Source of the DNA: Elsinoe ampelina
Taxonomy: Eukaryota
Length of the DNA stretch: 64,000 nucleotides
Direction of reading: 5' to 3'
Assembly: GCA_010093995.1 (NCBI GenBank)
Contig: ML992507.1
Span: 488,673-552,672, forward strand
Position numbers and translations under genes: made by a program. Numbering within the stretch: position 1 is the stretch's first letter; the number at the start of each line of letters is the position of its first letter. The notes below the pieces were generated by a model, which worked only from the letters and a program-made list of their open reading frames with translations, was not told the DNA's origin and did no database searches. Positions 14,440 to 46,669 of the stretch are shown here, piece by piece.

Positions 14440-16886
14440 CTAACCCCCAAATTCCTCCTCAATCTCCTGATCCGTCATGGTCCCAACAAAAGCTCTCTGC
14501 AAAAACGCATGCCAGACCTTGTTCATCTTTCCCTTCTTGACCTTGTTCTTGCGCTGCTTATTCTTCTCCCCTTTGCCCTTTCCTTTACCCTTTCCTTTAC
14601 CCTTTCCTTTACCCNNNNNNNNNNNNNNNNNNNNNNNNNNNNNNNNNNNNNNNNNNNNNNNNNNNNNNNNNNNNNNNNNNNNNNCCCTTTCCTTTACCCT
14701 TTCCTTTACCCTTTCCTTTACCCCTCCCCTTACCTTTGCCTTTCCCCTTCCCCTTTTTCCCATTCACCTCCTCTTTCCCCTTCTTCAGCACATCCACATC
14801 CCCTTGCCCATCCTGCTGCACAGCCTGCACCCCAGTACTCATCCTCTGCGCCAACTCGACATAATTCCTCACCGTCAGATCCTTGACCTTGTACACCGTA
14901 TCATTCATCGTATCATACAACACCTCAAACTTGAACTTTTTCGGGTCCGGCTTCCCATCTTGGCGCGGTTTCTTCCCGTTGTGGTGCCCGTGCTTGCCGT
15001 CTTTCCAGCCGCCGCTGTAGATCGCTTTGCCGGACTGGGCGTCTGAGGATTTGAAGTCGTTGTTGATGTGGGTCAGGTTGGCGTACCATTGGGTGTAGCC
15101 TAGGAGGCTGAGGGTTTGGGGGCTGTAGGCCGGTCCAGGTGGGGTGCCTCGTGGGGGTGGTTCGGGGACGGTGAAGCGTCGCTTTTTGTTGCTTTTCTTC
15201 TTTTTCTTTTTCATGGCTTCGAGGTCGCTGGAACCGAGGCCGAGGGCGTCCCAGTCCATCTTTGGGCGGGCGACGTCCATGGTTGGAGGTCGGTAGTCGA
15301 CGCCGGTGATGTTGTATTCGTAGATGCGGAAGGTTGGGTAGTAATTCGGTATCACGGATGGTGAAACGAACGAGACGGAGAAGCGTTCTGCGTAGTCGCC
15401 ACCGATCGCGCGAAGGTAGTTCTTCTCTCTACCGTGGCGGTCTTTGGGTCGCTTCTTCTTGTCCTTCTTGCCCTTTTTTCCTTTCTTGCCCTTATTGCCC
15501 TTTCCGCCTTTCTTTACGAGTGCATCAATTTCCCAGTCTGGTCGGGCGTCATCGGACATGTCGCTCACTGCATGAGCCGGCTTGTCAAGGTTCGGATGTG
15601 AACGCTCAAGAGTGGCAAGAGTGGTGTCGCTCTTCATCGACTTTGGCTTCTTCGGCAGCTGTGCCCACCACGATCGAAGCTCGGCGATGTAGCTGCTTGC
15701 ACTCTTGACCTCAACCTCGCCGTTTGCCTCCTTCTGCTTTGTGATCTCCCATTGCTTCTTCTTGTTCTCGAGTCCAAACTCTTCGATTCCTACACCATCT
15801 TCCAGACTGTCATTGATGTCATCAAAGTCCTGGACGATAAAATGGTCGATATTCATATGTCCGTAGAAAGTGCCAACCACAACATCTCTGTATTGCCGCA
15901 TCCAGAGAGCATACTTTTGCCAACATGTCTCGTCCCAGTTGATCTTGCCCTCGGTCCTGGCTGGCGGTACGTGTCCGATGATCATGGCTTTCATGCCCCG
16001 GATCCGCAGGAACTGTAGTTGTACCCTCAGCCACTCCATCTGCCTGTATCCAGGCTCTGACCGAAGACTGCATCCATCCACGGCGGCATTCTTGTCATAG
16101 AAGTACAGCGTGTTGAGGCTGAAGACGGTCAGGTAATTCGGGATCACGTCGACCGCATACCACCCCGACTGATCAAACTCATGGCGCTCCTCTTCCGGAA
16201 TGAAAGACTTCCAAAGGTCGAGATACGTCCGAGTCCACTCGTTCGGGCCGAGGTCGAAGATGTTATGCGGAAGAATATCATTGTTTCCAAGATTCGGTGC
16301 GATTGGTACAGTGTAGTCATCATACGGATCATCATTGTCTCGTTCTCGACCAAATACCTCCTCAAACTTGGCCACAATCAAAGCATTCAAGTCCTTGATC
16401 TGCTTGTTGTTACGAGGCAGCTCTTCGTCATTGTCGTGCCGCGCCGAGTCGCCGGTCCAGATTATAAAGTCAATCTCGTCTTTTACATGCTCAGCCAGCC
16501 AATCGAAGGTAGCATTTACCAGTGTGACGGGAGAGTCGCAGTCGGTCGTCTCGGCGCCGTAGTATCCTGCTGAGCCTGAAGATCGGTGGCAGGCTGAGTC
16601 TTCGCCTGTGGAGGAGTAGGTCTTGTAGAAGCGATCGGGGTGGAAGTCTAGTAAACAGTCAGCTGAGTTAGGGCGAAGAACTGACTCGATACTTGCCTGT
16701 GACGTGCATGAAGCGGCCATGGAGGTGGCCTGGCGATCGTGTCCGTACATCGTACACGATTGGCTTTTGTGCTTGTAATTGTGCTGGCTCGACTGTAGGA
16801 AATGGTGTTGCTAGGATGCTGGTTGGTAGAGCTGCGAGCAAAATCGCGACTACTGCCCACTGCGGGCCAGAAATGAGAGTTCTCAT
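14440..16886 (-). CDS. PPN1: Endopolyphosphatase Ppn1 (calcineurin-like metallophosphoesterase)
   Basis: Hydrophobic N-terminus; HVTDFHPD, WTGDSARHD, GNND, GHVPP, YGHMNIDHF, SPSVIPNYYPTFR. GC-AG intron at 16648-16696. The C-terminus KVWHAFLQRAFVGT lies beyond the N-gap. Confidence 0.93.
14570..14745. repeat. 12-bp coding tandem repeat (ccctttccttta)n encoding poly(GK), spanning assembly gap 14615-14684
   Basis: Repeat visible on both sides of the 70 N run. Confidence 0.9.
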
Positions 16887-17005
16887 GCTTGTTGTGACTC
16901 GATCATGACCGTCGTAATGTCATTAGGTATGCGCCCGTCGTTTGATCAGGAAGAATAGGTTGAAGCAAAATAACTGCCCGAACGAAGCTGTTCTGGCTGG
17001 ACAAG

Positions 17006-17264
17006 TGTTGAATTGTGTAGGGGAGGAAAAAGGATTGATTACTGCCTGAACCACCAAAATGAGGTGGATTGTAACTACATAAATACTCAACCTGGTATAC
17101 TGAAAGATAGCTAAATTAAAAGAACTCCTTAATAGCAGCAGATTAAGACAATAATCATCTAATTTGATTATGGATTAGTAAAATGGTAAGATAGTGTTTA
17201 GTTTAACCTTAGGATAAACTAAATTAGGGTCTTCTTAGCGCTCTAGCTTATGCCTCGGTTAATA
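17006..17264 (-). repeat. copia 3' LTR (259 bp)
   Basis: Collinear with 45899-46157; the differences seen are C>T/G>A transitions. Confidence 0.95.
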
Positions 17265-18296
17265 CACTCCTTTACTAAGTAGCTATAACTCTATAATAGC
17301 TAGTTAGTAGACTACTAACTCGAGGGATAGCTATTATAAGAAGGCCTTATACCTCCTAGGTAGTAATAATTTAGTAAATCTATTAGCTAGTGTATCTACT
17401 AATAGTATCTATGTGACTAAGATAGGACTAGATAGATCTCTAGCTTGATTAATCTCTTGTTTTAGCTAATAATAATAAATATTAACATAGCGAAGGCGTG
17501 TAGTTAGCTTCTTAATTAGAGTAGTAATAAGACTAATAGTTTACTAATTATTATACTAAATACTAACATGTTTAAGAGGATAGATAAAGGCTATTAGCCT
17601 CCTCTACTATATAGCTTGCTTAGTGGTCTCTATAAGAGCAAGTAGCTTAGCCTCTATAGTTAATATTATAACTATTAGTTGCTTTATAGCCTTCTAGTTA
17701 ATTAATCCTTAAAACATCTTAAAGAGATAGCCTTAAAGGCTCTTCCTTGTTAGGTAGCTACTAAAGCTAGCATCTAATAAAGCTTAGAAGATTAGTAGTA
17801 GTATTAAGCTATTAAAGGTAAGAGCTAAATTCTTAGTTTTATAGAGATATTAGATTACTCTATTTNNNNNNNNNNNNNNNNNNNNNNNNNNNNNNNNNNN
17901 NNNNNNNNNNNNNNNNNNNNNNNNNNNNNNNNNNNNNNNNNNNNNNNNNNNNNNNNNNNNNNNNNNNNNNNNNNNNNNNNNNNNNNNNNNNNNNNNNNNN
18001 NNNNNNNNNNNNNNNNNNNNNNNNNNNNNNNNNNNNNNNNNNNNNNNNNNNNNNNNNNNNNNNNNNNNNNNNNNNTACTAGGCTTAGCTAAGCTAGAGTC
18101 TCTTTATTAGTCTATCCCTTATAACTTAGATAGCTAGAAACTAGCTTAGATCTCTAAGCACCTTTATCTTATATTTAGTATAGAGGGCTATAATAATAGT
18201 ATTAGCTTTCTCCTCGTTACGAAAGTCCTAAGCGTAGAGAGTTAGAATATTAGGTTTCTCCGTATTAAACTAAGTTTAACTATATTAGGTCGCTAT

Positions 18297-18362
18297 AAAC
18301 GCACCGCACCTACCTAAATTTAGTTAAACGCACCGTACCTACCTAATTTTAGTTAAACGCAC
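18297..18362. repeat. Subterminal 29-bp tandem repeat (aaacgcaccgcacctacctaaatttagtt, about 2.3 copies)
   Basis: Directly visible about 80 bp inside the left TIR. Confidence 0.8.
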
Positions 18363-20599
18363 TATACGTGCCTTAGATTAGATAAATACTCTACTTGCCG
18401 CGACTAGAATAGATATAGAAATTAACAAGCATCTTCCGGAGAGAGCTCTCTAAGCTAGTGTAATTATAGATCTTATCTACTAGATAGAGAGGAAGTATAT
18501 ACTCTATATTATTAAAGCTTAGTATAGAAGCGCTTTTGCTATAATAGGAAAGTAGACATTATACGCCTTGTTCTCTAGCTTGTAACATAAAACCCTAAAC
18601 TAATATATACTTATTCTAACTCTATTTTATTGTCTCTACTTAGTTGTCTATTAAGGTGTTAGATGTCTCTAAAGACAAGCACTTTCGCGTAACTATATAG
18701 CTAGCAACAAAGGTTAATACTAACGAAAAGCGCCTCTATTGCCCTATAGCCTATAAGTTCTGCTATCTAGTAGCCTATATTGTTAATAATATAAAATAAG
18801 CTTATAGAGGGGCATTTATAACTTAGGCTTATAGATATAAGGAAGCTTTTCCTAAGAAGGACTTAATTATTATAGCTAAGTATAGTTATAACATCGAGTA
18901 TAAATACCTATAGACCTATTCTAGTACTTAGAAGTCGTTAGTAACGTAGGAAGAGAATAATAATAGAAGCTAGATATACTACGTTAATAGTGGCTATAGT
19001 AGCGAGGCTATAGCCTATTCTAAGAAGATTAACACTAATATAGACAGGTACGGGAAATGTAATAGATATTTAGTTTAGGCTAAGCTAATTCCTCGTCTAC
19101 TAACACGGAATAGTATACCTACTAGAAGGATAATTCTAGGGCTATAAAAGACTACCTAGAAAAGTAAGGTCCGACGAATATTAGTATAGTGTCTAAGTAG
19201 CCCTAGAGATAGTACTAAGGACATAGCAGTCTAAACGACAGCTTAAAGGCAGTTATAGCGGAGAAGTAAATACTCTTTCTAGGAAGTTTAAGATTTACCT
19301 TAACTATCTATCTACAAGGTCATCGGCAAGGAAGTAATTAGTAATAATAAGAGGCTCCTTCTACTTCTTACTCTTCTTCTCTGCCTTGCCGAGCTTAATA
19401 CTAGCATAGCTATAGACACTAGCGAAGATAGAGGTAGTACGCTTCTTACCTTACTAGCTCTCGGCGCTAGTTATAGTAGTCGTCGGAGAGGTAATAGAGG
19501 TAGTGTCTAGGTTAAGATCGCGGCACTTTATTGCTATATGTTAAAGATAAGGTTACCTCGACGCGTACTAAGCTTCTAGTAATAACTCGCAGTTGTAGCC
19601 GTATATAAGCAACAGTAGTTATAGAGGGAGCAGTAGTAGTAGCTTCGGTTACGGTGTACCTTACTATAGTAGAGAGCAAGGAGAAAGGTATAGAGAAGGA
19701 AGGGAGTATCTCTCTCTCGGAGGTAGGTATAATAACACTTTTTCCTACTATATCCCGCCGCTCTACTATTACTACTACTAAGTAGTAGTTGTAGTAATAG
19801 CGCGTGTAGGATAATCTAGTATATAATCTTATAGACAGAATTTGTCGTATATATATTATACACTAATAATCTTACGAGGAAATACTTACAACCTACGTAG
19901 ATATAGAGGAGACTTTAAAGGACAAGGAAGAGGCTACTCGCTATACTAAAGGGTAACTTCTTCTTCGACTCGTTTTCTGCGTATAGTATATATATAAAGA
20001 TTAATAAGAATGTTCCCTAGCGAGTCTTCTAAGCTAGTGTTATTATAGATCTTATCCGTTAGATAGAAAGGAATAAGTCCTTAGCAACTACTCTAGTAGT
20101 ATCGAGTAGATCTCTATGATGTAATAGCGAATAGAGTAAAGCGCTATTATCTATATCGGAGTCTTATTAGTAAACTTATTATAGAGAATAAACTTTCCTC
20201 TTAGACTGCCGACTCTATTAGTAAAACTAACCTAAAGATAACTTACTAACCTAAGCCTTTTACCACTATTGCTAAATACTTAGGGTATGTCTTAAGTATC
20301 TTAAAGACTAACTTCTATAACGCCTTACTATAATTTCCTAAGCTATTGTAATTAGTAAAGAAATAGACTAACTCTTTAGCGTAAAAACTATATAAGGCAC
20401 CTTAGGCTACGAACTCTATATAGTTTAGAGACTAACCTAATAATACACAGGTGTAAACTAACTAGTTAGAGTAATACCTACGGAAGTTATTACAACTCGC
20501 CTACCTAATATAGTTTAGTAGTTAACCTAAGTATACCTAAGCGTTAGGCCGTCGACGTAAGAGACGATTATTCTAGCTACGAAAGGAGTACTCTAGCTT

Positions 20600-23500
20600 C
20601 GTTAATACCTACTACGCTTACTAACTATGCCTAGGGATCTTAACCTCTCTTGTTTCGAAGCCTTAGCTAAGTAGAGCTATTTAGACTCCTATAACTTATT
20701 CTATAGCATATTATATATGTTAAAGTCGGCTATGTTATTAATGTATATCCGGCTATATAGCCTTATTTTATCTACCGGCACGACGTAGATACTATAGTAG
20801 ATTTACGAGGTAGAGTAGACACGTCTACTAGTAAGAGTGTTCCGTCTAGCTCGCGCGCGTCGATTTGTCTAAGGCTTAATTAGTGTTATGCTATGCTCTC
20901 GATTAGCTACTCTATTTAGCTAAGTAGGCTAATATAGATCTACTAGCGCTCCCGTGTAGTATAGGCGTTAACGCTAGCCTAATCTACTAGACTAGAAGCT
21001 ATTCTCTATAGTTATTATAAACATAATACGAGCTAGTAACTTACCTTATAGGCTATTAGGTAATGCTCCGTTAGTGCCTTTATCGTTCGTTATCTATTCT
21101 TATACCTAGAGCTAGTCTTGCCTCTTATTGCTACGTATCCTCTACTATTTAGTTATACACTAGATAAAGTCTTATTTGTCCGTATTAGGATTATTAGGAT
21201 TATAGTTAGATAGTTTTCTATACTTTAAAGAATAGTAGAACTTAACGTAGAGGTTACTTACCTAGGAAGAATCTAGTTTAAGTCTATCGGGATCTAGTTC
21301 GGCGTTAAACTAATTAGAGTATTTAGTTCTCGAGTTAGAGCCTATATCGGCTATACCTTAACGAGCCTCGCGGACAAATACCGCTATTACTTGCTATAGT
21401 AATAGCCTAGGTAGCATATTAATAAGCGCCTCTAGTTCTCTTACTATACGCTATATAGCCCCCCCCTTAGCGCTAGGCTAGCCGAACTAAGAAGTAACGT
21501 TTACTATATCGCTTACGCCGACTAGCGTACTCTAGATCTTAATTAGTTTAGTAGCTAATAGCCTAACTAACTTCGAGGGGTCGTTAAATACTACTAACAT
21601 GTTTACTAGTTTAGTGTTATAAGTAGTAACCTAGTCTTTCTATCTAGCCTTCTTATTCGTGAGTTTAAAGGCGTCCTTAATAAAGCATATATAATTATAC
21701 TCTAAATAATTAGAATCGAGGCTAGTAACTACTTCGAAATTATAGATAGCCTTTAAAAAATATATTATTAAGTACTATTTCGGAAAGTTAAAGTTACTCT
21801 CTTCTTTCCTATTACTATAATAGGCCTAGAAGGTTTCTTTATACTTGTTTATCCTAAAGAGCGCAAGGTTAATATACTAGAGTATATCGTCGTTATAGGT
21901 CTTATAGTTTACTAGTAATATAAAGTCAACTAGTGCGCGTATAAACTTAATAGCTTAAGGCGCCTTAACCTTCTTAAGTAGTAGTATAAATACTAGAAGC
22001 ATCTAGCGTATAATACTCTTCTACTCTTAACCTGTCTATTGCTTAATAGCTAAGTAGTGCAAGAAGTATTAGATGCCGGGAAACACTAGTATACTATCGA
22101 AACGCTTGTTAATAATATTAAGTATAATCTTCTTTGCCGAGCGCTAGTGGCCTATTCGCTATATAGTCTCTCTAGCCTTTATATACCGCAGTAATCTCTA
22201 TATAGGTATTAAATCCTAGAGCAATTTTTAAGTCTAGCGTAAGATGTGTATTAAAACGCCTTTAAGAAGTTAGTATAGAATATCTAGTACTATTACGTAG
22301 TAAATATTAGTATACGGAAGATCCTATATAAAGTAACTAACCGTATAAACCTAAGAGCTTATATCTATCTTCTTGCCCTGCTACTAACTCTCGTATACTT
22401 CTCTCTATAAGCGCTATTATCGCTACGTAGAGTAGTAAGTTCGGAATAGTATAGTAACTACTAGGTTCTCCCTTTCGTCCTTGCTAATTAGGCAACTTAT
22501 ATAATAATATAGTGACTTTACACTAGTTATAGTAACCTATTTAGCGTAATTCGTAGGTATAGCAGCAAGTATAGAGAAGTACCTCTGCCTCTTTCTATCT
22601 ATATAGAAGATTGTTTTACTCTCTCTCGAGTAGTAATTAATAATAGTATTAAAGATTTTCTTTATATAAGCGTAGTAGGTCTTCTCCTTAACGACATTGC
22701 TACTATCTTTAATAATAGAAAGTAAGCTAATTAGTAACTACCCCGGCCGGTAGTTGCTATTACGTACTTCTACCTTTAGGTTACCTAATAATAGATAGAT
22801 AGCGTATACTATAAGATCTCCTTAATAGTTTATTACCTAGGTCTAATTACTCGCGACGATTAATAGAATAATAGTAGCCCCTAGTATTCTAAGTCGCTTT
22901 TGTATGTTCTACTACTAGTTGCTACTTACTATTTTAGTGTATACTTATTATAGTAGCTTACTCTCGATAGCTTCTATAAAGACTCTATATAGGCTATAGT
23001 CTATATCTACTACGAAACTATAATAGCTAAGTAAGAAGCGTATCGCTATAAGAATATCTAGATGCTAGAACGTATGTCTTTTAGGCCTACAATTAGTGTT
23101 TAGTATAAAGCTCGAGGTCTACTAGCCGTTAATACCCCCGCCCGTATCTAAATTCTCTATCTTCTCTATTAGTTTATTCGTAGTTCGCTAACTAAGGCTC
23201 TCTACTAGAGGTTATATACGTAGGCCTTTAAGTAATTACGTAATTATAGCTCTACTAAGTTTCTCCTTTATAAGCTACTAGGTAAGACCTACGTCTATAC
23301 CGCTAATAAAGGCTTCCTTTAGTTAAGTCTTGCCTAACTAATTGTAATTTAGTTCATCGTCGGTGTTAGTGTATATATTATAGACTTAGGGAGATCTAGA
23401 CAAGATTAGTCGACGCGAACTAAGGATAAACTATATCTATAACTAACTCTTCGCTGCCGGCCGGTATACTAGTAGCTATCTCGAACATAGTATAATCGGA

Positions 23501-23737
23501 TATAGCTCTACTAGATAAGGACAACCTCCTAGTACTCCGCCCTATAGATATACTACTAGTTGTGCTTACTATAATTACTTACTCTTCCTCGTGCGTGCCT
23601 TCTATTGTAACCTCGTCTATACTCTCCTCTTTCTCGTGTACGTCGCTATTAAGCCTACTATTACTATTACTGTCTGTTTTACGTGCTAGAGGTTAAGGGT
23701 TAAGGTCGGTAAAGAGACTAAGAGAATTATCCGCTAT
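20600..23737 (-). pseudogene. Plavaka-family transposase relic
   Basis: De-RIP: PGATIIPLIVASDQTQ...YAIYLSLGNL (about 22780-22885), CADGKRQRCFPVLAAMPADYAEQ (about 22540-22610), DLPYADIHHVMVPDILHQLLKG (about 22260-22325), IDKRFDSVPVFPGIRHF, QWTGQEQK, VRALVDF, FNFPKWH, KDAFKLTNKK. Ends approximate. Confidence 0.88.
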
Positions 23738-23885
23738 GCTATACTATATAGTAGGCAAAGGGGGAAGGATACTCTCTACCGGCTATAGACTTTCGTTTCT
23801 ACCCTAGTGTTTAGTTCAATTCTTAATTACTATTATTCGTAGCGGAGTAAAGTAGACTAGCGAGTTATTCGGCGTTAGCGGACTA
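23373..23885. repeat. Internal direct repeat A, copy 1 (transposase 5' end plus upstream region)
   Basis: Near-identical to 30726-31238 (offset 7353). Confidence 0.9.
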
Positions 23886-24349
23886 TATTATATATTACTA
23901 GTAATACTACCTCGTTAGCCTTTATTAGATAGTAAGCGCTCTCTCTTATTAAACAAGCAGGAATTGTTACTAGCGTTGTCTCTACGTAGATATCTATTGC
24001 TACGTTACTCTAGTAAGACTTACGCTATATTACTTATTAGTAGCTCTCTTCTCTAGTAATATAGTAGATGTTAGATAAGGCCTCTACTAGATTATATAAT
24101 CTTCCTACAGGCCGAGCATTTACTAATTCGCCTTAGTATATCTATATTTGTCGCTTAAGATCTAAATTTGTAGTTAGAGTTAGCTAGCTAAATTTTAGCG
24201 ATAGTAGAAAGTAGGAAACGTTTAGATACTATATTATATTAGGTAACCTAAAAGATAGTTTAACATATATAGAGAACTAAATTAGTCCGCTAAACTAAAG
24301 AATTGCATTTTTAGGTGATATAGTTAGACTATTATCTAGTAATCTTAAT

Positions 24350-27300
24350 TATTATCTATAACAATTGTGTTCTTCTTCGCCGTAGCTTATTAAAGTTTCT
24401 AGATCTTCGCCCTCTACTTCTCTATTTCCTCGTAGATAACCTTCTATATTATTAATAGCCTACTCTATCTACTATTAAGCTATTCTAGAGGCCTATAGAA
24501 CGGAGCTATTAGCTTTATTATAAACGCCTCTATGTAGTTAGCTTTCTAAGACTTAATGTTCCTATAGACCTAAGCTAGACACTAAAGGACGAATCGTAAC
24601 ACTAACGCTATATCGAGCAAGATTATAGTATCGAAGTAGTTTAGATTAAGACTAGTCTTAATAGCTCTACCCTAGGCAATTAAGATCCTTAAGCCTTCCG
24701 GCCTATTAGGTTTAATAAATGTATCGTTAGATATAGCTACGTTAACAATGTCTATATAGGTAGGTATAGATATTATTCTATAGTAGATAATAACTACATT
24801 AGCATTCTTATCGATCCCGATTGCTTTGCTGTCTAGGTGCTTCTCGAGCCATTTTAGATACTATGCCCTTATTAGTAATAACCTAAATAGACTAAATAGA
24901 CTAAACTAACTATTGTAGCAACTACTAGTACTAATAGTGTAAACGCATAGATAATTACTTACCTCTTTAGCTCCTTCGAATAGGAGACGTTCTACTTAAT
25001 AATCTCGGAAATAACACTATAAAGGACCTTTATCTAAGGACTAGCGTAGATCTTGTCTATATGCTACTATAGCGCTATCTCCGAGGAGTTATATATAATT
25101 TCGTAGACAAACTTAATAGTAAAGTCGCCGAACTCTTCTATAACTATAGGATCGTCCTAGAATATATCTATAAGAGTAAGAAACATAGAGAAAAGTAGTA
25201 GCGGCGTAACTAGGCTTAGTATTTGCTCCTTAGTCTTCTTATTAAGGATCGTCTCTAATGTTACTTCGGGCTTATCGGATTTATCCTTTTACCTATCGAT
25301 TATCTCTTATATACTCTTATCTATATCCCGTTCGATCTTCTTCTATATATTTATAAGACTATAAAGATACTTATCCTTAATAGTAATCTCTAGATCGAAG
25401 GTAGAATATAGTAGAGCTCTAATAGCTAGTAGACTAGGAGTAGTATTAAAAGGTTTCTAGATGTAGTCTATATTTATCTTAATAAGAATATTCGTAAGGA
25501 TAGTACTCTATTTACTAACCGTTGCTATAATCTCTTCTATAAACTATATACTTCTCTTTTTGTTAAACTTACTAGAGTTGTTATTCGCCTTATACTATTT
25601 ATTAATTACAAAGGCATAGTCTAATACTATTTAGAAGTTAAGCTTATTAGTAATAGCTTATTAAGTCTTATCTAGTGTTATCTTTAGTGTTACTTAACAT
25701 TTATTATTCTTAGCCTTAGTTAGCTTCTACTTAGATTTATAGATATAGTTCTTGTTAAATTCTCCTATTCTACTTCTATTCGTATTAAGCTTTTCTAATC
25801 TAAAGTTCTTATACATAGTCGCTATTAAGAACGCTACTACGTTTAAGCACTTAACAAATAGCGTCCTACTTATACCTAGTATAAAAGGCCTCTCTAGTAG
25901 CATTCCTAAATAACACTAGGTCTGCGTCTTCTAGCTAGTGACCTAATAGAACTTATTAAAGATGATAGTAGCCTAGTTTATAGGCGTAGACCCTAGCTTT
26001 CTCTCTTGTCCCTTAGGAACAAAGTTCTAATCCTTGGCGTTTATGTTGTTCTTACTAAGGAAGCGGTAGATTATAGTATTACGAGTAGTAAAGAAGAATT
26101 AATTATTTATCTATAAGGTCTAGGGGTATTACTTACGTATATCGACTAGTTATAAGACTATAATAGTGTTAATAGGCTTACTAGACTTATCTATTAGCTA
26201 AGACTCTTATTAGTAGTAGCCTATAGGTAGATTCTCTTTGCAAATTAAAGTGTCTATATTATATACGTCGCTATACTTATATTCTTATATAGCTTAGAAT
26301 ATTCTCCCCTAGCATAGGACAACCTTTATATTAGGTATAAACTTCCGTATCTCCTACGCCTATTGTTTTATTATATTTAATCTACTAACAATTAGATTAT
26401 AGCTAATAGTATCTATAGAAGCAATATCTAGCTATAGCTCGTTAACTAGTATCTTTACCTTCTAGTACTTGCTCTACTTATCCTTAGGTATAGTAGTATA
26501 GTTAGTATCCTAAATAACCTTTTTGTTTAAGTTCCGAATTAGTAAGAGAAAAAAGAGTTTTATTAGAGTCTTCCTAAATTCTATCTTATATACGAACATA
26601 AATACTAGGTAGCCTTCGAGGTATTTCTTAAGTGTAATAAGCGCTAAGTATATCTATGCTACCTCGACTAGATACTTCTTGTTCTAACTAAAACACTATA
26701 CACTAGCGTTCGGTAAGTAGATGTCTTTCTTAAAGCCTATAAAGTTATAGACTCTCTCCTAGAACTCTTTAGACTAGTAATCGATTCTAGTGCCTATAGG
26801 GATAAAGCTTTAGTTAGCTAGATTATTACTAGTTTACTCGTCGTCGTTGTCGTTTATAGTATAAAGTTTAATAAAGTCTAAGCTACTAAGAGTCTTATTA
26901 AATATACAAGTTATAAGCGCTAGAATAGGTATAGATAGCGTCTTAGAGACTAACGAAATATAGTACCTTACTTGCTTCTTACTAGGTATAATTATAAAGG
27001 GATACTAATTACTATCTCGGCATTACTTATAGTATTTGTCTTCTATTACCCGAGTAGAACGATAGTCGATAGTAGTATTATTCTTGTTAGGTAGTAGAGG
27101 GCTAGGTTGCTTCTTAGGGGTAGATTTACGTAGTAGTAGGCGCTTAGCTAGAGATAGAGGGGCTAGAGGTTCCTCTTTCTCTTCCTTCTAGACTAGAGTC
27201 GATAGCTTCTAACTATTATAATACTAAAGAGAGTTAACTAAGTATGTTAGTATATACCTAAGTCAAACTAAGTATTAAACTTATAAAGTACTTCTTTAGG

Positions 27301-28326
27301 GAGCTTCTTAACTAGATTCGTGCTAGGCGTAAGATAGACGAAAATTATATTACTACCTTTAACTAGGGAGTTAATATAGTTAATTATAGCGGCACGTAGG
27401 TTATAGTTGTCTAAGATAGATAGGATATTATATAGCTCTATATAATCTATCTATATAAGGATAATGTTATTACTAACTAACTTCTTCTCCTTTAGGAATA
27501 GCCTAATATTATTAAGGCTATATACGTTCGAATTATAATCCCCTAGATATAACCTTAAAATTCTTAGACTAAACGCCTATAGACGACATAAATATCCTTT
27601 CTTTATAATTATGCCTAGGCTAATGTCTAATTACTTAACAATTATAAAGTTAATAATAGTTTTGTCGATAATACTCTAGACTAGACGAGATATATCCTCT
27701 AGTATTTGCTACTAACGTATAGGCTAACTAGTGCGGTGATTAATATCTATACCTACGAGTCCGCTACTAAGTATAGAAGTCTCTAATCTTTTAGAGAGTC
27801 TACTATCGGACTAGGTAGTAGAGGGGCGCTTTCTAATATGCTTCTTAGGATAAGCCTTCTTATCTACTTTAGTCTAATTCTTCTTATTCCTAAGCTCTTA
27901 CGCCTTAATAGTAAGGACGAAATCTTTAATAACATTATAACTAGATATATTATTATAGTTTTTAACGTTCCTCTTAAACTAGTCTTAGTCTTAATAGTGT
28001 AGTCTTTAAAAGAAGATCTTCGTATAGTTATCCTAAGAGTATTATAGAGAAGTTTTAATATTGTCTATAATCGTAGTTATATTAACGTTACTATCCTAAG
28101 GTTCCTTATATTTAAGTCCTAGAACTATATAGACATTCTTATATTCTTCCTACGCTCTTACATATACGGCGGCGTACTAGTCGTTGTCCTAGTTAAAGAA
28201 TTCAAGGAAGAATCTCTTAATCTTAAGGTTTTTATCGAGCTATACTTAAATTTCTATAGGAGGTCTTTCGTAGAGTAGAATGTTATTAGTGGCTATACTA
28301 GCGCCGTTAGGCTAATTCTTAGACAT
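24350..28326 (-). pseudogene. SNF2-family (SF2) ATPase/helicase-like gene relic, cargo of the giant element
   Basis: De-RIP motifs in canonical order: I FAHEMGFGKT (about 26567-26596), Ia LIVS..VVKQWAQEIRKFVPDMKVVL (about 26320-26400), II WATIIFDEFHQV (about 25940-25978), III LGMSGTPF (about 25855-25885), V ILIAQGGAIKTGLNLNCFDTVILLD and VI QCLARVHR (about 24560-24690). Ends approximate. Confidence 0.85.
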
Positions 28327-29280
28327 ATTACGTACGTCCGTAAGCTTAGTATATACTATAAATAAAGCTTAGAATAATATCTAGTAAACAGGTTAAGTAG
28401 GTATAGTAGATATTAAAGAAAAGATCTCGTAAAGGTATTACGTATTTATAAGTTTAGAAGAATTAAGAAGAGGATTTATTAACGTAGTAGGTCTATATAC
28501 TTTGTAATATATGCCTAACTAAGACTTAACTAAAGAGGAGATATTTAAGTAAAGAGCGCTTAAAAGAGAGGTTAAAGAGGTTAAAGAAATACTAGAGAGC
28601 TACATAAGTTATTTATTTATATATAAGAGAGTATAAACAAAGGTAAACTAAAGCAATTAAGGAGAGAAGTAACCTAAATTTAGTCGACTTAGGTCGGGCC
28701 CCGAACTAAGCACGTAGTAGTATACTAGATATAGTATATATATAATAGTAAATTACTTAGTTTAGACACTAAACTAAGAGTAACTATAGTCTATGTACTT
28801 AGTTACCTTTTATTTTACATGCCGTATGTACTAAGGATACTATTATTGTATTTAGGGTAGATCTTAAGGGATAATAGTCTAATAAATAGAGGGAATATAG
28901 TAGTAGTTAACATAAAATAATTAAACAATATTTTAATAGCGAAACTAGTATTCGTATACGAAGGACAATAGTAATAGAACATAAATAGAAGGTAGTTAGT
29001 AGCCTATAGCGGTATAAAGGGCATAGTATATATAGCGTATAGTATAGCTTATAGATACTAGTAAAGGAACAAAGAAAGTAATATACTACTATTTAATTAT
29101 CTAGACTTTACAATTGCCGTATATAGAATTAAGTAGTAGAGTAGAGTAAAGGCTATATATTCCGCGGAATAGGCAGTTAATAGTATATTCTACATAATTA
29201 TAAATACGCTTTATTCCTCGCCTAGCCCTACTAGGAAGGCAATAGCGAGAGAGGACGCTACTAGTATAGCTTTACCTACG

Positions 29281-30025
29281 ACGCTCTCTATAGTAAGCTA
29301 CTGTCTAGTAGGAGGTAGTAGATATATCTTTACCCGCGATATTCCTCTATCTCTTTCTCTTTGTTATACCGGTTGTTCCTTTACAATTCTCCCCTTAACA
29401 TCCTTATACTATAAGGCAGGTAATCCCTAGTAGACACTAGCTTCTTTACCCTCTTTACGTATGCTAGAACCCCTAGTAGCGCTATCTATAAGATCGAGAG
29501 ATACTCCGCGATAGATTCGCTTAGTCGTAGCTACTAGGTAGAGACAGTAGCTAGTCCTACTAATAATACGTAGCTAGTATAAAGAAAGCTATAGAGAGTA
29601 GTAGTAGCAGAAGAGAGAGAAAGAGGTATCGGAGTCTCCTTATACACTCTTAAGCCTATAGTAGCGTAGTAGGCAAGATAGAGAGGTATACTATAATAGA
29701 TTTGCTCCGGCGTAACTACTAGGTACTAGCGGTAGTTAATTCTATAAACACAATATAGCCGGTATAGAGAATACTATTAGAAGTAGTAGCGACAGCGATA
29801 TAGGAGTAAATGTTAGAGTCGCTATTATATATATAGTAATAGATAATTATAGTGTACTAGGCGGGGGATCCGCTATAATAGATAGCTAGCTATTATTAAG
29901 GTCGAATAGAGAGAAGAGAAAAGGTTATACTAGAGACGCTAACGCCTATATTTAGGTCGGTATAAGTAGAGGGTGCAAACTAAGGCGTTATAGTAAATCG
30001 TATCTATAATATAGTTATGTCGCTA
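29281..30025. repeat. Internal direct repeat B, copy 1 (contains a small Pro-rich minus-strand ORF relic)
   Basis: Near-identical to 36454-37198 (offset 7173). Confidence 0.9.
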
Positions 30026-30152
30026 TAAACAGAGTTTATAACACATTTATAATACTATAAAGATTATAAGTCTCTAAACACACGATACTTAACTTTAGAG
30101 AAGAATACAATTAGATAGTATTACGTAATTAAGTTCCGAGGAGTACTTAATC

Positions 30153-30350
30153 TAGTTAGGTCAAAATTTTAGGTTATTCTTAAACTTCGAGAGAGGGAAC
30201 TAAGAAATTGTTAGTTCGACGTAATAAACTACTAGCTGTCCTCTACTAGCTATAGTTAGGTCGAAATTTTAGGTTATCTTTAAACTTCGAGAGAGGGAAC
30301 TAAGAAATTGTTAGTTCGACGTAATAAACTACTAGCTGTCCCCTACCGGC
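30153..30350. repeat. 100-bp tandem duplication
   Basis: tagttaggtc(a/g)aaattttaggtt...aactactagctgtcc begins at both 30153 and 30253. Confidence 0.9.
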
Positions 30351-30725
30351 TGCCCTCTACTACCGCTATATATAACATGCTAGAGATAGAGTAAAGTAAC
30401 AATTTATACTACTAAATTTAAGCCGAGTAAGCTTTCTACTAGTAAATACTGTTTTACTATTAGTTAGACTACTATAGCCTTTACATGTGCAACTTAGACG
30501 TATCTTTAGTACCCTTATATAGGTAGAAGTAGATTTGTTAGAACATTATATAGGGGCTAGTAGTCTATAGCGAGTGTATTCTACTAGAAGGCGCTTCTAC
30601 TACGACGACCTAACTCGAATTAAAATTATCTATCTAAGTTAGTAGCTTACCTTTTATTAAACGTTAGAGCGCTAAGCTAAGGGTCCCTAGCTAAGCTATA
30701 TCTTGTTAATCGCTTAGGGCGAAGG

Positions 30726-31238
30726 ATATATTATAGACTTAGGGAGATCTAGATAAGATTAGTTAACGCGAACTAAGAATAAACTATATCTATTACTAAC
30801 TCCTCGCTACTAGCTAGTATACTAGTTACTATCTCGAACATAGTACGATCGGATATAGCTCTACTAAATAAGGACAACCTCCTAGCACTCTGCCCTATAG
30901 ACATGCCGCTAGTTATACTTGCTGTAATTACTTACTCTTCCTCGTGCGTGCCTTCTATTATAACCTTATCTATGCTCTTCTCTTCCTCGTGTACGTCGCT
31001 ATCGAGCCTACTATTACTATTACTATCTATTCTACGTGCTAGAGGTCGAGGGTTAAGGTTAGTAAAGAGACTAAAAGGATTATCTACTATACTATACTAT
31101 ATAGTAGGCAAAGGGGGAAGGACACTCTACGCTAGCTATAGGCTATTATTTCTACCTCGTTACTTAGTTTAGTTCTTATTTACTATAATTCGTAGTAGAG
31201 CTAATAGGACTAAGCTATTATATAGCATCGGCGGACTA
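30726..31238. repeat. Internal direct repeat A, copy 2 (truncated copy of the transposase 5' end)
   Basis: Matches 23373-23885; similarity stops abruptly at 30726. Confidence 0.9.
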
Positions 31239-31739
31239 AAGCTAAAATTGTATCTACGCTATAGTACTAGACACGTTAAGACAGAGTTTACTCTAATATA
31301 TCTAAGCGACAGAGTTTGTCGGCCGTCCCTTACTTAAGAACAATATTAAATGCTATACTTAATTAGCTATTGTCGCGCTATTGTCCTTAGTAGAGGCTTT
31401 TATAGCAATTATAAAACAGAGAGTACCGCGTAGGTATAATAATTTTAGCTAGTAAACGATTTATAGCTCTTGCTATCTTATGTCTTAACTTGTCGCTAGT
31501 ATTATAATAAGTTAGTTATAAATAGCCTCTACGAAAAAATAGTAATAGCGATATATAAAGACGCCTTAGCTATATAACATTAGGTCGTTTATGCCTATAG
31601 TTAATCTGTTAGGGGTGGTTAATTAGTTTACTAAACTAAAACTAGCACTTTTTAGGTAAAAATTGCAAGCGTTCCCTTAACCGATCTTAACAAGGATAAA
31701 CTAATAATTTGCTATTACTCCTCTATTAGTTTAAACAAC

Positions 31740-34700
31740 TATGCTTTTAGTTTGTCCGCTTCGCTATATTGTCTTATATAACTTTCTATATCATCGTTAG
31801 TGTATCGTAGCTATAGTTAACTTACTTCTTTAGCTAATAGGATAGTATAGTTAGCTTAAGTGTAAACGCTGTTATTATATCTACGCTAGCGAATATTATA
31901 TTCTCTAAGGCACTATCGGAAGCCTACTATAATAATTAGATCTATATACTAACTTTATGTTAAGCAAAGTTATACTATTAAGGCGGAAGTACTAGTACTC
32001 TACTCGTTATAGAACTATATACTATTCCTAGTTATAAACTAACTAGCGTAGCCTTCTCGAAGTAAGTTTACTTTAATATAGCTACCCTAATAATGCCTAC
32101 GTAGCTTACTATAGACTTCTCTCTATAATTAATAATAACAACTTTAGTGCCCTTACTAATCCTAATAGCTTAGCTATTCGGAATTCTCTTAAGTTATTAT
32201 AGATATAGCTCTCTTATTAGTAATAACCGAACTAGACTAACTAAGTCGAACTAACTACTATAGCTACTACTAGCGCTATAGAGTTATACGTACAAATAAT
32301 CCCTCGCTGCCTCTTAGTCTTCTAACTATAGGCTTTCTATTCTATAATCTCGAGGATAATAACATAAAGGCCCTATATTTCTAATCTAGCGTAGCGCTAG
32401 CTATATACTTATCTACTACTTCGGCTCGGGGTATAAAGTCTAAGGAGTGTCTATAGCCCCTACTATAATGTCGGTCGATGTTATTACTCTTCCTATACTA
32501 GCGGGGCGGTAGAGTAAATAAAGTAAGCTTACGACAATATCTAGCATAATTACCTCTAGGTTCCTTTTGCTTGTCGAATATAGATATTATCCCGTACTAC
32601 TCTCTCCTATATAGCATCTTTATAATTGTAGTTAAGGTATACTCCCCTATACGCGAAGCGATTTATATATATAGTACTACTAAAGAAATAAGATATCTAT
32701 CCTTAATTAAAACTTTAAAGTCCTAGTTAGAAATATCTTAAACCTAATAAGATATAAAAGTAGATATAGCTGCTAGATGTTTTATAATTAGGTTAAGATA
32801 CATGTCGAGAGGAATAAATAGAAGTCTAGCTATCTATATAGGGACTAATACGAAGATTTCGAACTAGAAACGAGAAGTAACTATTATATTTACAAAAAGG
32901 AGACTGTAATAGGCTTTAACTATTCTTATATTACCTTCGTATAGGCGGAGAGCTACCTCTTATTATATTATATAGCAATATTAAGTTAAATCGTGTCTAG
33001 TTTATCCTCTCTTATTCTTTGCGATAGATACGTCTTTACCGCCTATAGATAGAGACTAGCTCTACTATATCGAAGCTACCTTTGTTAAGTAGTAGGCATC
33101 TAATCTCTTTCTCTTAGTGTAATTAACCTTATATTAAATATTAAGCTTAATACTAAACCTACATATACGGTCGGTAGAGCTATACTAATACCGAGTAGTA
33201 ATTACCTAACAAGGAGAGGTATAAGATAGCTAGGCATTATAGCGTTCCCTTAAAGGACTTATCTACCCTAATATAAAATAAGTTTATCTCTAGTTTTAGG
33301 CCAACTAAACTAACTTAAGTTTATACTTAGTTAGGAGGCGCGACCTGACTTAAAGCGTCTCTACTATTTATTAGGAGGTAGTAGCTAGAACTAATAATAG
33401 TCGGCGGGAATTCTTTATTAACTTCTAAGTATACTACGTATAAACCTCGCTAGTATACGAGAGTAAAGCCTAATAACTGTATTAGTAGTAACGCCTACGC
33501 GCTTCTTTATAGCACTATACTATTCTTATTTAATTTAGTTAACTCTAAGTTCGGTATAGAACTAAAACTTATACTATTACTTCTACTATAATAGGGGACA
33601 AGATTCTATCCTACTAACTTGTTTTACTTATTATTAAACGCCCTAGTCTGTTATATCTATAGTAGTATCGCTTCGTTTCTATTGTTAATAATATTAAGAA
33701 CATATTACTTTTTTAATGCTAATGTTAATCTCGTGTTAGTAGAAGTAAGTCGTTATCTTCTCGGACTTGCTCTCTTTACTCTAATACGTTATAGCGTGCT
33801 AGGCAGGCTATAGAAAGTCACTAGTAACAAAGTAAAACTTAGAAGAGGTATTAGAGAGCTCCGAGAGATCGCGTTTATCTAGATAGATAGCCGGCCTTAG
33901 GTGTATAGTAGCTTATATAATATTCTTTAAGCTATTAAAGCAGTAGAAATATAGATAGCGCCTCGGCGGCATATGCTATAGTCTAAATAGGCTATATTCT
34001 TCTAGCGGGGAAGAAGGAGCTATATTCTCCTAAAACTATATAAAGTAAGACTATACTCTAAACTAAGTCGCTAGGTCGGTTAGAATCCGTCTAGCTATAG
34101 TTATAGGACTATCGAGCAAGTTTACTTCTAATAACAATAACGGAAATTCTAGAATTTATAGAAGCTATAGCCTCTTAGGGGTAGAACGAGCTAAATAAAA
34201 CTTTATTAGTTAAGAACTAAACAGTTTTATAAATAACGTAATAGCAAATAAAATATAGTAGTATTACCGCTCTTGCCTTTAGCGGTTTAGTCGCTATCGC
34301 AGGTATTAAACGTTCTATATTATAATATTCTCTTTCTACTAATCTCCTTTACGCTTCTTATTAGTGTTAATATCTATAAAGCAAAGCTTCTTAGGAGTAA
34401 GAAACACTTCTAAGTTCTCTTCTATAGTAGCCTTAGCTATAGGAAGTAGTCGCTAGCTACTATAATATCGATAAGAGTTGTCTATAAGTGTTAGTATATA
34501 TAGATAAATAGAGAAGAGGTAAACTTACTTCGTATAAAGTCGGAAAGATCTTTAATAGATACTATAGAAGGAGTAAGATAGAGAAAGATCTTATAGGCAC
34601 TAGAGATAAGGGTCGTAATATACTTAGTAATAGCAGCGTCTAGATCGAAAGAGTCTTTAATAGTAAAGACTTATACGGAGTTATATATGTTAAGCTAGTA

Positions 34701-35600
34701 GAGTTAGAGGTAATTACCTCTAATGTTAAGGATCTACCTAAGCTTACTAATGTAGTAATTAACGTAACGATTCTTGTCCTTGCTAGTACTAGGCTTTCTT
34801 AAGTTATAGACGCGAATATTCTTTCTTAATGTTAGATACAAGATAGTGTCCGCTTCGATAACCTCTATAATCTAGATCGTGGCAAATTTAATGTCGATCT
34901 AGACACAATTAGACGCTAGCCCCTAGTTAAAGCTAAACATTCTATAACGAGGCTATATATATAAATCTAATCTCTTATCGCCTATCTTTATACGAGTTAT
35001 ATGTCTCTCCGAGGATAGTGTTCTTACTTAGGAGAGCGTTAGTGTCTATATAGACGAGGTAGCTAAAGAATATAAACTCTAGGTACCTTCTTTGCCTAGC
35101 GATATTGTCTTTTCCCTTTTAACCGACGGGAGATTTGCCCTTATTAATTATATAGTATTTCGGAATAATCGCTATATAGCTTTTATCTTGTCGATATTAA
35201 CTATAGTCTATAAGTTCTCCTTAAACTAGTCTAGATCTTTCCGATCTAGTTAGTCGACAAAGAGCTAGAAATCGTTAGGCGTGCTATTTAGCAGCCTAGT
35301 TTTAATTTTAAAGCGTGCTTTAAGCACCTTAGGATTACGTAACTTACTTCTATCTTGTTTCTCAATTTTAATATTAGATTCTATAAAGACTTTTAAGATT
35401 GTTTCCTTTATTCTCGCAAACGCGGTAGAGTATTACTAGTTGTCTTAATTAAAGAAGAATTAGATAGATTTCTTACTAACATTATTATTGCGAAGTATAT
35501 TCTTAATAAGAGCTAGTATAAGGTTATTAAGTAGAATCTTTTCTATAGGTTTAGTAGCGACCTTTAGCTTCTTCGTCTTCGGCGGTATAGTGCTATTATA
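31740..35600 (-). pseudogene. Diverged paralogue of the cargo SNF2 gene with degenerate ATPase motifs
   Basis: Shares N-terminal FFNQDN.QY and DLDWFKEN (copy 1: DQDWFKRN) and C-terminal DSVTLLDM (copy 1: DTVILLDM). Also shares nucleotide similarity (24880-24920 versus 32220-32270). No GKT or DExH found at the aligned positions. Confidence 0.65.
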
Positions 35601-36453
35601 TATATTTAATAAGTATAAGAATATCTACTAGTAAAGGCGTTATATAAGGCAAGTAAGGTTAGAGGAGTCGAGATTATATAGCTAGGAACTAAGCGTAGTA
35701 AGTTAAGCGCTATAGAGTAAACAGCAGTAATTATAAATACCTACTACCTAGTATAATATTAAAATACTACGCGGAAAGTAGGTAGTAACTTCTTAAATAT
35801 AATAAAATTTGTATTTAAGATAGTATACTAAAGTAAGTAGTACACTTGTAACTAAGATCTAGTTTAGGCCTCGACCTAAAAGTAAACTAGGTTAACTAAG
35901 TCTATGTTTCGTATGTACTAATAGTAACACGTAATAATTACTAATATTAGATTAATACTAGAACTAAAAGTAAATAAGTTAGTTTACTACTAACAAATAT
36001 TATAGAGTATAAATTAGGTAAGCAAACAAAACGTAGCTATTAGAGAATATTATAAGTGCTAATTATTATAGAAAATTAGTGTCGAAGTAATTAACTATAC
36101 TAAACGCTCGTATATTAGTGCTATATACGAAGTTATATATGCTCTAAACAGCTAGCGGACTATTTAATAAAGAGTATTATCGTATAAAGTAACAACCTTA
36201 ATATCTTTATAGTAGATAGGAGACAAGACGAATAACAAGGAATAAAGAAAGATATATAGTATACTTATACGTATTAGACAAGGAGATTTTGTTTACTAGT
36301 TAGAGAAGGGGAATTAAAGCGATAGGTATATAATCTACGTAGAAAGAAGTATATCGCTAACGCGAGAAAGTTATAATAAAGCGCTATTAATAATAAAACC
36401 CCGCTATAAAAGTAATTATAAAAGAGAATACTACTAATATAGCTCCGCCTATA

Positions 36454-37198
36454 ACGCCCTCTATAGTAAGCTACTGTCTAGTAGGAGGTAGTAGACGTAT
36501 CTTTGCCTACGATATACCTCTATCTCTTCCTCTTTGTTATACTAGTTATTCCTCTATAATTATCCCCTCGATATTCTTATACTATAAGGTAGGTAATCCC
36601 TAGTAGACGCTAGCTTCTCTACTCTCTTTATATACGCTAGAACCCCTAGTAGCGCTATCTATAAGATCGGGAGATACTCCGTAATAGATTTGCTTAGTCG
36701 TAGCTACTAGGTAGAGATAGTAGCTAATTCTACTAATAATACATAGCTAGTGTAAAGGAAGCTATAGAGGGCAGTAGTAGCGGGGAGAGAGAAAGAGGTA
36801 TCGGAGTCTCCTTATACACTCTTAAGCCTATAGCGGCGTAGTAAGTAAGATAGAGAGGTATACTATAATAGATTTACTCCGGCGTAACTACTAGGTACTA
36901 GTAGTAGTTAATCCTATAAATATAACATAGCTAGTGTAGAGAATACTATTAGAAGTAGTAGTAATAGCAAGGCAGGAGTAAATGTTAGAGTCGCTATAGT
37001 ATATATAACAATTGATAATTGTAGTATACTAGGCGCGGGAATCTACTATAATAGATAGCTAGCTATTATTAAGGTTGGATAGAGAGGAGAGAAAAGGTTA
37101 TACTAGGGACGCTAACGCCTACGTTTAGGTCGGTGTAAGTAGAGAGTGCAAACTAAGACGTTATTACAAATTATATTTATAATATAGTTATATCGCTA
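36454..37198. repeat. Internal direct repeat B, copy 2
   Basis: Matches 29281-30025. Confidence 0.9.
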
Positions 37199-43100: not shown

Positions 43101-43149
43101 TAATCTAGATTACTCTAACTTAGAGTCTAAGATAGTATCTAGTTCGGCT

Positions 43150-43247
43150 ACTAAACTAGATTCTAAACTAGATTCTAAACTAGATACTAAACTAGATGCT
43201 AAACTAGATTCTAAACTAGATTCTAAACTAGATTCTAAACTAGATTT
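43150..43247. repeat. 12-bp tandem repeat (aaactagattct)n in the copia integrase-RT linker
   Basis: About 8 copies visible; the 12-bp period preserves frame. Confidence 0.85.
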
Positions 43248-45898: not shown

Positions 45899-46157
45899 TA
45901 TTAAATTGTATAGGGGAGGAAAAAGGATTAATTACTACCTAAACTACTAAAATAAGGTAGATTATAACTACATAAATACTTAACCTAGTGTACTAAAAGA
46001 TAGCTAAATTAAAAGAACTCCTTAATAGTAGCAGATTAAGACAATAATTATCCAATTTGATCATGGATTAGTGAAATGGTAAGATAGTGTTCAGTTCAAC
46101 CTTGGGATGAACTGAATCAGGGTCTTCTCGGCGCTCCAGCTTATGCCTCGGTTGACA
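45899..46157 (-). repeat. copia 5' LTR (259 bp)
   Basis: Matches 17006-17264; followed by TSD ACAAG. Confidence 0.95.
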
Positions 46158-46669
46158 ACAAGGCCTGATCACTGGTCGTGCGGCTGCAGCCCCCCCGGAC
46201 GATCAGCGTCACTTTTTCAATTTCGGCGCAGGAACAAGGTCAAGTCGGAGTGGAGCCAGCCAGGCAGGTGGAATTGCGTGACTCGCGCCCTGTCATAGAT
46301 ACTGTAGCCTGCTGAGCGGCTGTCCTTTGAAAGGTGTGCAGGAGTTGTATTTGCAGATATCGAAAGACGACATGTAGTCAATGTCGCGTGCTCTCCATGA
46401 CAAGTCCCTGTCACACGCTCTGTCATCAGACAAGAAGTCATAAGGCTCTACGCAGCTTGATCGTGAGCTTCACCATGACCAATAATTCGCACTTTATGAG
46501 GCACGTGTGGATCTGACGCGAGAAAGCCTCCCACGCAAAGCTGAGGCGACCACAAAACCAAACCCGAGGAACGACCGAAGCCATCAGGGTACAGCTGTCT
46601 GTCTTTCGAGCTCACTTTTCGCACCTTTGGTGAATTACCAGTCACGTGTTGACAGTATACATTCTGTAT

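Follow-up and report, generated by a model that had tools for sequence, protein, structure and literature searches.

A pseudogene of apparent SNF2-family ATPase ancestry beside a Plavaka-type transposase relic in Elsinoe ampelina

What was the ruined gene that lies upstream of a transposase relic in Elsinoe ampelina, and did it once belong to the transposon? The window analyzed here is a stretch of 64,000 nucleotides (GCA_010093995.1, contig ML992507.1, positions 488,673 to 552,672 of the forward strand), and all positions given below count from its first letter. The gene, referred to as copy A, has been degraded by repeat-induced point mutation (RIP). An original prediction, made from the letters alone, held that it had encoded an SNF2-family ATPase, possibly a remodeler supplied by the element itself. 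SNF2 ATPases remodel chromatin and protein-DNA complexes, and the usual cut-and-paste transposon has one or two protein genes. Judged by its sequence, copy A descends from an SNF2-family ATPase gene, and it probably formed part of a multi-gene transposon.

Helicase motifs and profile alignment of copy A

Copy A is littered with stops (143-152 in each of the three minus frames, of ~1366 codons each), and the open reading frames (ORFs) that overlap 22-34 kb do not exceed 89 aa. Any statement on family membership applies to the gene before RIP, and the present DNA is a pseudogene. The original prediction had read six SNF2 motifs in order after reversal of RIP, and each of these strings was located on the minus strand (asterisks are stops):

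24350-28326, minus strand: copy A, RIP-degraded SNF2-family ATPase gene, with its ATG at 28326 and its end near 24350
26590-26567, minus strand: motif I (Walker A), YKIEFRKT, reading HEMGFGKT once RIP is reversed, 8/8 codons compatible, aligned to DEMGLGKT
26365-26339, minus strand: motif Ia, Q*A*EIRKF, reversed to QWAQEIRKF, 9/9 codons compatible
25966-25946, minus strand: motif II (DExH box), IIFNKFY, reversed to IIFDEFH, 7/7 codons compatible
25870-25859, minus strand: motif III, SRTL, reversed to SGTP, 4/4 codons compatible, aligned to TGTP
24653-24612, minus strand: motif V, SLNLNYFDTIILLD, reversed to GLNL..DTVILLD
24584-24561, minus strand: motif VI, *CLA*VYR, reversed to QCLARVHR

Motifs V and VI (24561-24653) are RIP-compatible at 22 of 22 codons, and over all six motifs, which stand in SNF2 order, 50 of 50 codons reach the claimed residue by reversing T to C or A to G alone. 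Motifs I, Ia, II and III share one frame, and motifs V and VI lie together in another. The helicase core extends from ~26810 to 24561 behind ~500 N-terminal codons, and it is complete from the Q-motif region through motif VI. The alignment path switches reading frame four times or more within the core, as either introns or indels would produce, the two being indistinguishable here. Neither Pfam nor profile alignment reveals a recognizable domain in the ~500 N-terminal codons, and none appears between motifs III and IV either, where copy A has ~145 residues more than the prokaryotic consensus.

Taken naively, an ordinary search returns no superfamily 2 (SF2) profile match, the very outcome that the original prediction had named as speaking against it, so a test that models RIP was needed. 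We built an SNF2-core profile of 505 columns from 51 of 120 prokaryotic ORFs that had been fetched by a motif-I pattern, retaining those with at least 430 residues beyond motif I. The Q-motif region and motifs I to VI can be made out in its consensus, and all three members that were checked carry PF00176 and PF00271. Copy A was compared with this profile by a custom local aligner, in which the score of a codon against a column is summed over every ancestral codon that C>T/G>A changes could have turned into it, with frameshifts and jumps permitted. The scorer is self-built, and no curated threshold stands behind its scores.

With the RIP rate set to 0.4, the minus strand of copy A reaches 71.6 bits; it reaches 78.7 at 0.2, 60.6 at 0.6 and 49.6 when the RIP term is removed, as against 19.7 bits for the opposite strand and 21.6 for the reversed sequence. 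A context-aware RIP model with high rates at CpA/TpG gives 76-87 bits (maximum 87.2), with controls at 20-34 (maximum 34.1). When 15-49 kb is scanned on both strands, scores of 34.4, 71.6 and 47.2 bits come from the three windows that overlap copy A, whereas the remaining 29 windows of 4 kb score 16.6-27.6. Shuffling leads to the same picture, with a mean of 26.8 and a maximum of 38.3 bits for 90 codon shuffles (Gumbel-extrapolated P ~4e-7) and a mean of 24.3 and a maximum of 33.3 bits for 90 first-order Markov shuffles (Gumbel-extrapolated P ~1e-7).

The result holds when the reference is divided. Profiles from disjoint halves of the members give copy A 80.3 and 73.3 bits, and each sets all six motifs on the matching consensus, namely DEMGLGKT, NWEREIEK or NWQREIEK (half 0 and half 1, respectively), I/VLDEAQR, TGTPIENR, GLNLTAAD and QAIDRAHR. 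The best block of the alignment is that of motif Ia (26395-26306, 29.3 bits), followed by that of motifs V-VI (28.7 bits), and 44 of the 60 most informative profile columns score positive. Single-sequence profiles of RapA and RecG from E. coli score 34-39 bits, with null means of ~37, and have no power; the preference for SNF2 over other SF2 families is consequently an argument from the SNF2-typical character of the Ia and V-VI blocks and not a formal comparison. The SF2 match that the original prediction called for is thus found by RIP-aware alignment (71.6-87.2 bits, controls at most 38.3) and is absent from ordinary Pfam, where no family appears at E<=1.

Transposase, repeat copies and the enclosing retrotransposon

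The second gene of the putative element lies downstream of copy A on the same strand, ~1 kb from the SNF2 gene end to the transposase core, so that the predicted co-oriented arrangement is confirmed:

23310-21649, minus strand: Plavaka-type DDE transposase relic, core

Pfam PF18759 matches 23094-22243 on the minus strand with E 2.4e-22 (80 bits against a cut-off of 26.3), and RIP-aware alignment over 23310-21649 gives 161.9 bits, as against 36 for the opposite strand and 30 for the reversed sequence. The profile for this alignment comes from 60 of 120 retrieved Plavaka proteins, themselves the best 120 of 1557 matches; all of these best 120 are from Agaricomycetes, and no ascomycete relative is among them. 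Three Mycena Plavaka proteins match the relic at E 1.6e-12 to 1.3e-9. On both strands of 15-49 kb this is the sole transposase core, and copy A is the sole SNF2 core detected.

Both genes sit in a 29-kb AT-rich block of the window (~17.0-46.2 kb, GC 0.29-0.39) with gene-like flanks of GC 0.50-0.60. At 18100-46000, TpA/ApT is 1.91 and (CpA+TpG)/(ApC+GpT) is 0.26, whereas the flanks (GC 0.54) show 0.53-0.71 and 1.18-1.30. The SNF2 gene itself, with 1.80 and 0.25 at GC 0.32, has the indices of the transposase and of the remaining block, in agreement with the claim that it is as heavily mutated as its surroundings. High TpA/ApT, low (CpA+TpG)/(ApC+GpT) and transition-type differences between copies, the marks of a RIP repeat, are all present.

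The entire AT block is a single long terminal repeat (LTR) retrotransposon insertion of 29.2 kb with a 5-bp target duplication, ACAAG. Its parts are as follows:

17006-17264, no strand assigned: left LTR, 259 bp, outer 5 bases 17001-17005 ACAAG
45899-46157, no strand assigned: right LTR, 259 bp, outer 5 bases 46158-46162 ACAAG
43361-43558, minus strand: Copia-type relic, SH3_retrovirus, E 1.2e-4, under the Pfam cut-off
41996-42496, minus strand: Copia-type relic, RVT_2, E 1.3e-5, under the Pfam cut-off

The two LTRs differ from each other by transitions only and end in TG..CA once RIP is reversed. The Copia-type relic (41996-43558, minus strand) adjoins the right LTR, and its domain order fits the right LTR being the 5' LTR. 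The Copia-like region also contains an array of a 12-base unit (43115-43246, consensus ~CTAAACTAGATT), and just right of the LTR, in the GC-rich flank, lies the C-terminal part of a cytochrome P450 (46751-46999, minus strand, PF00067, E 4.5e-8). Runs of N, which are assembly gaps, occur at 14615-14684 and 17866-18075, the latter inside the AT block. The retroelement encloses ~23 kb of nested DNA that includes the transposase and both SNF2 copies, so the SNF2-bearing DNA arrived by insertion, and this nesting excludes a resident single-copy host gene.

The second copy and the segments that it shares with copy A are the following:

31759-35537, minus strand: copy B, a second, more decayed copy, 7.2-7.35 kb right of copy A, with no transposase core behind it
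23373-23842, no strand assigned: segment X1, lying in the gap that separates the SNF2 stop from the transposase core, with its twin X2 at 30726-31195
29250-30030, no strand assigned: segment Y1, 0.9-1.7 kb upstream of the SNF2 start, with its twin Y2 at 36423-37203

When translations with X at stops are compared by blastp, copies A and B match with 77.8 bits in the N-terminal part and 93.6 bits in the C-terminal part, and the best of 21 unrelated RIP frames reaches 29.3 bits. X1 and X2 are identical at 0.86 of places, with transitions at 0.13 and transversions at 0.01. Y1 and Y2 also differ almost entirely by transitions (1% transversions), with an abrupt loss of homology at 30030-30044 and 37203-37217. 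Between X and Y, the 5.3-kb interiors of the two copies contain indels and 15-43% transversions at fixed offsets, and this contrast with the 1% in X and Y rules out a simple recent tandem duplication. The 0.6-kb junction between the truncated end of copy B and the upstream segment of copy A contains a 100-bp unit twice in tandem (30144-30343, 92-96% identity).

The repetition extends beyond the window. One sample with the same organism label supplied two DNA runs, whose short contigs were placed on 18100-38000 at a minimum of 80% identity; 13269 and 10036 of them were obtained. For run X1, 3665 contigs are at least 99% identical, 3861 are 95-99%, 4394 are 90-95% and 1349 are below 90%, with 1477 transitions and 21 transversions at the differing places. 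Each listed variant place in the SNF2 gene is represented by 9-18 distinct contigs, and across the DNA runs the number of distinct variants there, all of them transitions, is 5-24, much like the rest of the stretch. Four runs presumed to be RNA contain almost none of the sampled sequence words, a result not read as evidence on expression. The summed contig depth, which is not a copy number and comes from a sample that may be the source of the window's own assembly, is ~8-13 thousand and flat in 29 of 30 bins, with 21-22 thousand in the first bin (18100-18763); single contigs have depths of 150-400. The SNF2 part is as repeated as the transposase part. Together with copy B and the nesting in a retrotransposon, these transition-type contig variants uphold the view that the gene was multicopy and not a single-copy gene of the host.

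Comparison with known elements

The closest described counterparts are the Entons, announced by Kapitonov at the 2012 Asilomar transposable element meeting and mentioned by Bao & Jurka 2013. In the passage of the meeting report that concerns them (PMC3520738), Entons and Intons are fungal elements with 5-6 conserved proteins, derived from En/Spm and IS3EU. The Enton proteins include an SNF2 helicase, so that its carriage by fungal En/Spm-derived transposons was reported in 2012-2013, and it is reportedly among proteins conserved for more than 100 million years; one of the passages on Entons also mentions Academ with its RecQ helicase. A full-text literature search returned only two passing mentions of Entons and, for Plavaka with SNF2, only an unrelated co-mention.

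As far as these brief accounts go, the element described here resembles Entons in its fungal host, its En/Spm-related (CMCT) transposase, its SNF2-type helicase gene and a size beyond that of a one-gene cut-and-paste element. It pairs an SNF2 helicase gene with a transposase that counts as En/Spm-derived if 'En/Spm' takes in Plavaka. The comparison is one of descriptions, and Entons may be of Plavaka or of classical EnSpm lineage; the transposase here matches the Pfam Plavaka model, and this copy is dead. Fungal transposons related to En/Spm are already on record as carrying an SNF2 gene, albeit with scant documentation, and this element is a dead new instance.

Plavaka transposons of Agaricomycetes (PlavakaA/B) are reportedly the subject of Iyer et al. 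2014. They share with our element the transposase domain PF18759, with Mycena proteins as the best matches. The accessory gene described for fungal members is, in the excerpts dealing with it, a TET/JBP dioxygenase and not SNF2. Plavaka/CMCT termini are given in a 2025 survey (PMC12730594) as TGT..ACA, CATCA..TGATG or CAC..GTG, and of these, the agaricomycete termini TGT..ACA or CATCA..TGATG are not identifiable here. The text of that survey names no helicase accessory, and one supplement contains neither 'SNF2' nor 'helicase'.

Academ/AcademH and the giant red-algal Plavaka elements (PAG1-3) are, in the accounts of them that bear on this point, likewise cut-and-paste elements with an extra nucleic-acid or chromatin enzyme beside the transposase. 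They differ in what that enzyme is: Academ/AcademH carries a helicase of the RecQ branch rather than SNF2, and red-algal Plavaka carries SET/methylase and a 2OG oxygenase-like protein but no SNF2. Cellular SNF2 remodelers (SNF2-rel_dom and Helicase_C) share with copy A motifs I, Ia, II, III, IV, V and VI in order under RIP-aware alignment, whereas the present sequence of copy A reaches no Pfam cut-off. In a study of Fusarium graminearum structural variants, an 'SNF2 helicase-like protein' is named among insertion-polymorphic orphan sequences (PMC11152077), and such strain-specific insertions would be consistent with SNF2 genes that move in other Pezizomycotina as well, as far as that entry describes them.

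Origin of the SNF2 gene and its meaning

We consider it probable that copy A is the RIP-destroyed SNF2 ATPase pseudogene of a multi-gene Plavaka/EnSpm (CMCT) cut-and-paste transposon of the 'Enton' kind. The once-active element would have carried on one strand an upstream region (Y), the SNF2 gene, a short spacer (X) and the DDE transposase, and its family would have risen to many copies in the genome. Two copies would have entered a Copia-type retrotransposon, A extending through the transposase core and B lacking it, and RIP would then have turned C to T and G to A throughout, leaving nothing functional. Judging from what SNF2 ATPases do, the protein of the living element may have been a motor translocating on double-stranded DNA that aided the transposase on chromatin. 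It could have cleared or slid nucleosomes at the element ends or the target, or disassembled the post-cleavage complex. Any part in transposition, or in countering silencing as the original prediction also suggested, is speculative.

A number of results weigh against this explanation, among them the blank ordinary searches. With raw translations (X at stops) as queries, the three minus and three plus frames of copy A gave no Pfam family at E<=1, and the present sequence stays below the gathering cut-offs of PF00176 (SNF2-rel_dom) and PF00271 (Helicase_C). PADLOC and PHROGs gave no SNF2 match, a word-indexed protein search left 0 of 7998 candidates at E<=10, and phmmer against 1.84 billion representative proteins found no match. 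In the PDB, phmmer returned one chance match per query (E 1.4 and 0.83), neither of them an SNF2 protein. When RIP was simulated on six held-out prokaryotic SNF2 genes, harsher levels included, ordinary hmmsearch still gave 70-388 bits, as against ~1 bit for copy A. RIP alone therefore fails to explain the blank searches; either the ancestor was itself a divergent SNF2 protein, or copy A has decayed beyond RIP. The RIP-aware alignment is itself split into 19 blocks, and under stricter gap costs the margin is smaller (36.3 bits where the null peaks at 22.8, and 32.3 where it peaks at 27.2).

The structure of the element is also difficult in several respects. The SNF2 profile scores copy B at 18.3-29.8 bits, which is background, and the puzzling mosaic of diverged A/B interiors with X and Y segments that differ by transitions only may reflect gene conversion or recombination between subfamilies. 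A RIP-tolerant search for terminal inverted repeats of a DNA transposon did no better than its controls, no target duplication (2-3 bp expected) was found, and no 3' region common to copies A and B scores above controls. Because no element ends were found, the placement of the SNF2 gene between the transposon's own ends is presumptive. The assembly gap at 17866-18075, near a possible 3' end, may hide one of them. Downstream of the transposase, a 100-base direct repeat (18395-18494 and 19974-20073, 1.6 kb apart, 78-80% identity) may represent subterminal repeats of a DNA transposon.

Two further points concern the gene content expected of such an element. The expectation that SNF2 homologues would sit beside Plavaka genes elsewhere was disappointed in 80 metagenomic Plavaka loci of agaricomycete type (553 kb), none of which has an SNF2 match. 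The loci came from metagenomes scanned with an alignment of agaricomycete Plavaka sequences and include at least 3 kb of upstream sequence in 33 cases and at least 4 kb in 17. SNF2 linkage is not a general Plavaka trait, and what the null result shows is only that agaricomycete-type elements lack SNF2. Within the nested DNA (~17.3-41 kb), Pfam finds no further domain of other Enton-type proteins (minus strand 15-47 kb; plus strand 18.1-21.7, 24.3-28.4 and 37.2-41.2 kb), although RIP may hide them, so that 2 of an expected 5-6 proteins are detected.

One may also ask whether there is an SNF2 relic at all, or whether the motifs arose by chance from a permissive reading of AT-rich DNA. Each codon admits more residues when RIP is reversed, all standard searches are blank, and canonical SNF2 genes stay detectable under simulated RIP. 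Chance would nevertheless have to account for copy A reaching 71.6 bits when 29 windows, the opposite strand, the reversed sequence and 180 shuffles all stay at or below 38.3, and for six colinear motifs that fall on the right consensus in two independent half-profiles. Moreover, the Ia and V blocks, read in the frames expected for them, are where ordinary hmmsearch has its two best, though weak, matches to copy A. We regard a chance origin of the motifs as very improbable.

Given an SNF2 relic, it may have joined the transposon in other ways. A Plavaka element or a segmental duplication could have captured a host-derived SNF2 gene or fragment, which was then co-amplified as a passenger without any role in transposition. 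Capture of genes by DNA transposons is common. The missing ends leave the structure open to such an event, and both the 0 of 80 agaricomycete-type loci and the Fusarium graminearum protein, as briefly described (PMC11152077), are in line with it. A passenger would hardly be expected to remain with X and Y in two copies whose interiors diverged anciently, or to retain everything between the Q-motif region and motif VI in the orientation of the transposase, and the reported conservation of the SNF2 helicase in Entons also speaks against capture, which appears rather unlikely. It is slightly harder still to credit that Y, the SNF2 gene and X formed a separate repeat unit abutting an independent Plavaka insertion, such that the two genes never moved together, even though copy B consists of exactly Y, gene and X without a transposase core and the A/B homology ends at ~23180-23300, near the start of the transposase profile alignment at 23310. 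Since the whole AT block is repeated, equal depth is no proof of a single element either. Against a separate unit, X (23373-23842) occupies the place where the first ~157 residues of the transposase should be encoded, given that position 158 of the profile aligns at 23310, scans of both strands, with Pfam over the intervals given above, revealed no other transposase, integrase or replicase, and the precedent, in the short accounts available of it, couples SNF2 with En/Spm-type transposases.

If the preferred explanation of a multi-gene element is extended, the Plavaka-lineage transposons of RIP-competent ascomycetes might constitute a barely described, Enton-like class of multi-gene elements in which a divergent SNF2 protein is an obligatory cofactor of cut-and-paste transposition in chromatin. 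We put this forward as a tentative proposal that is rather doubtful at present. Strong divergence of SNF2 in such a class would account for its escape from standard profiles, also with RIP taken into consideration, and, if the proposal is true, a eukaryotic DNA transposon would bring its own remodeler.

On the methodological side, a domain missed by Pfam, phmmer and PDB searches came to light once profile alignment took RIP into account. A dead copy reveals no function and serves only to guide the search for intact relatives, and a high-copy family that combines SNF2 with a Plavaka-type transposase points to where Enton-like elements can be studied. Elements that carry a motor of this kind bear on how a transposase gains access to its ends and targets in chromatin, and on how the complexity of mobile elements grows.

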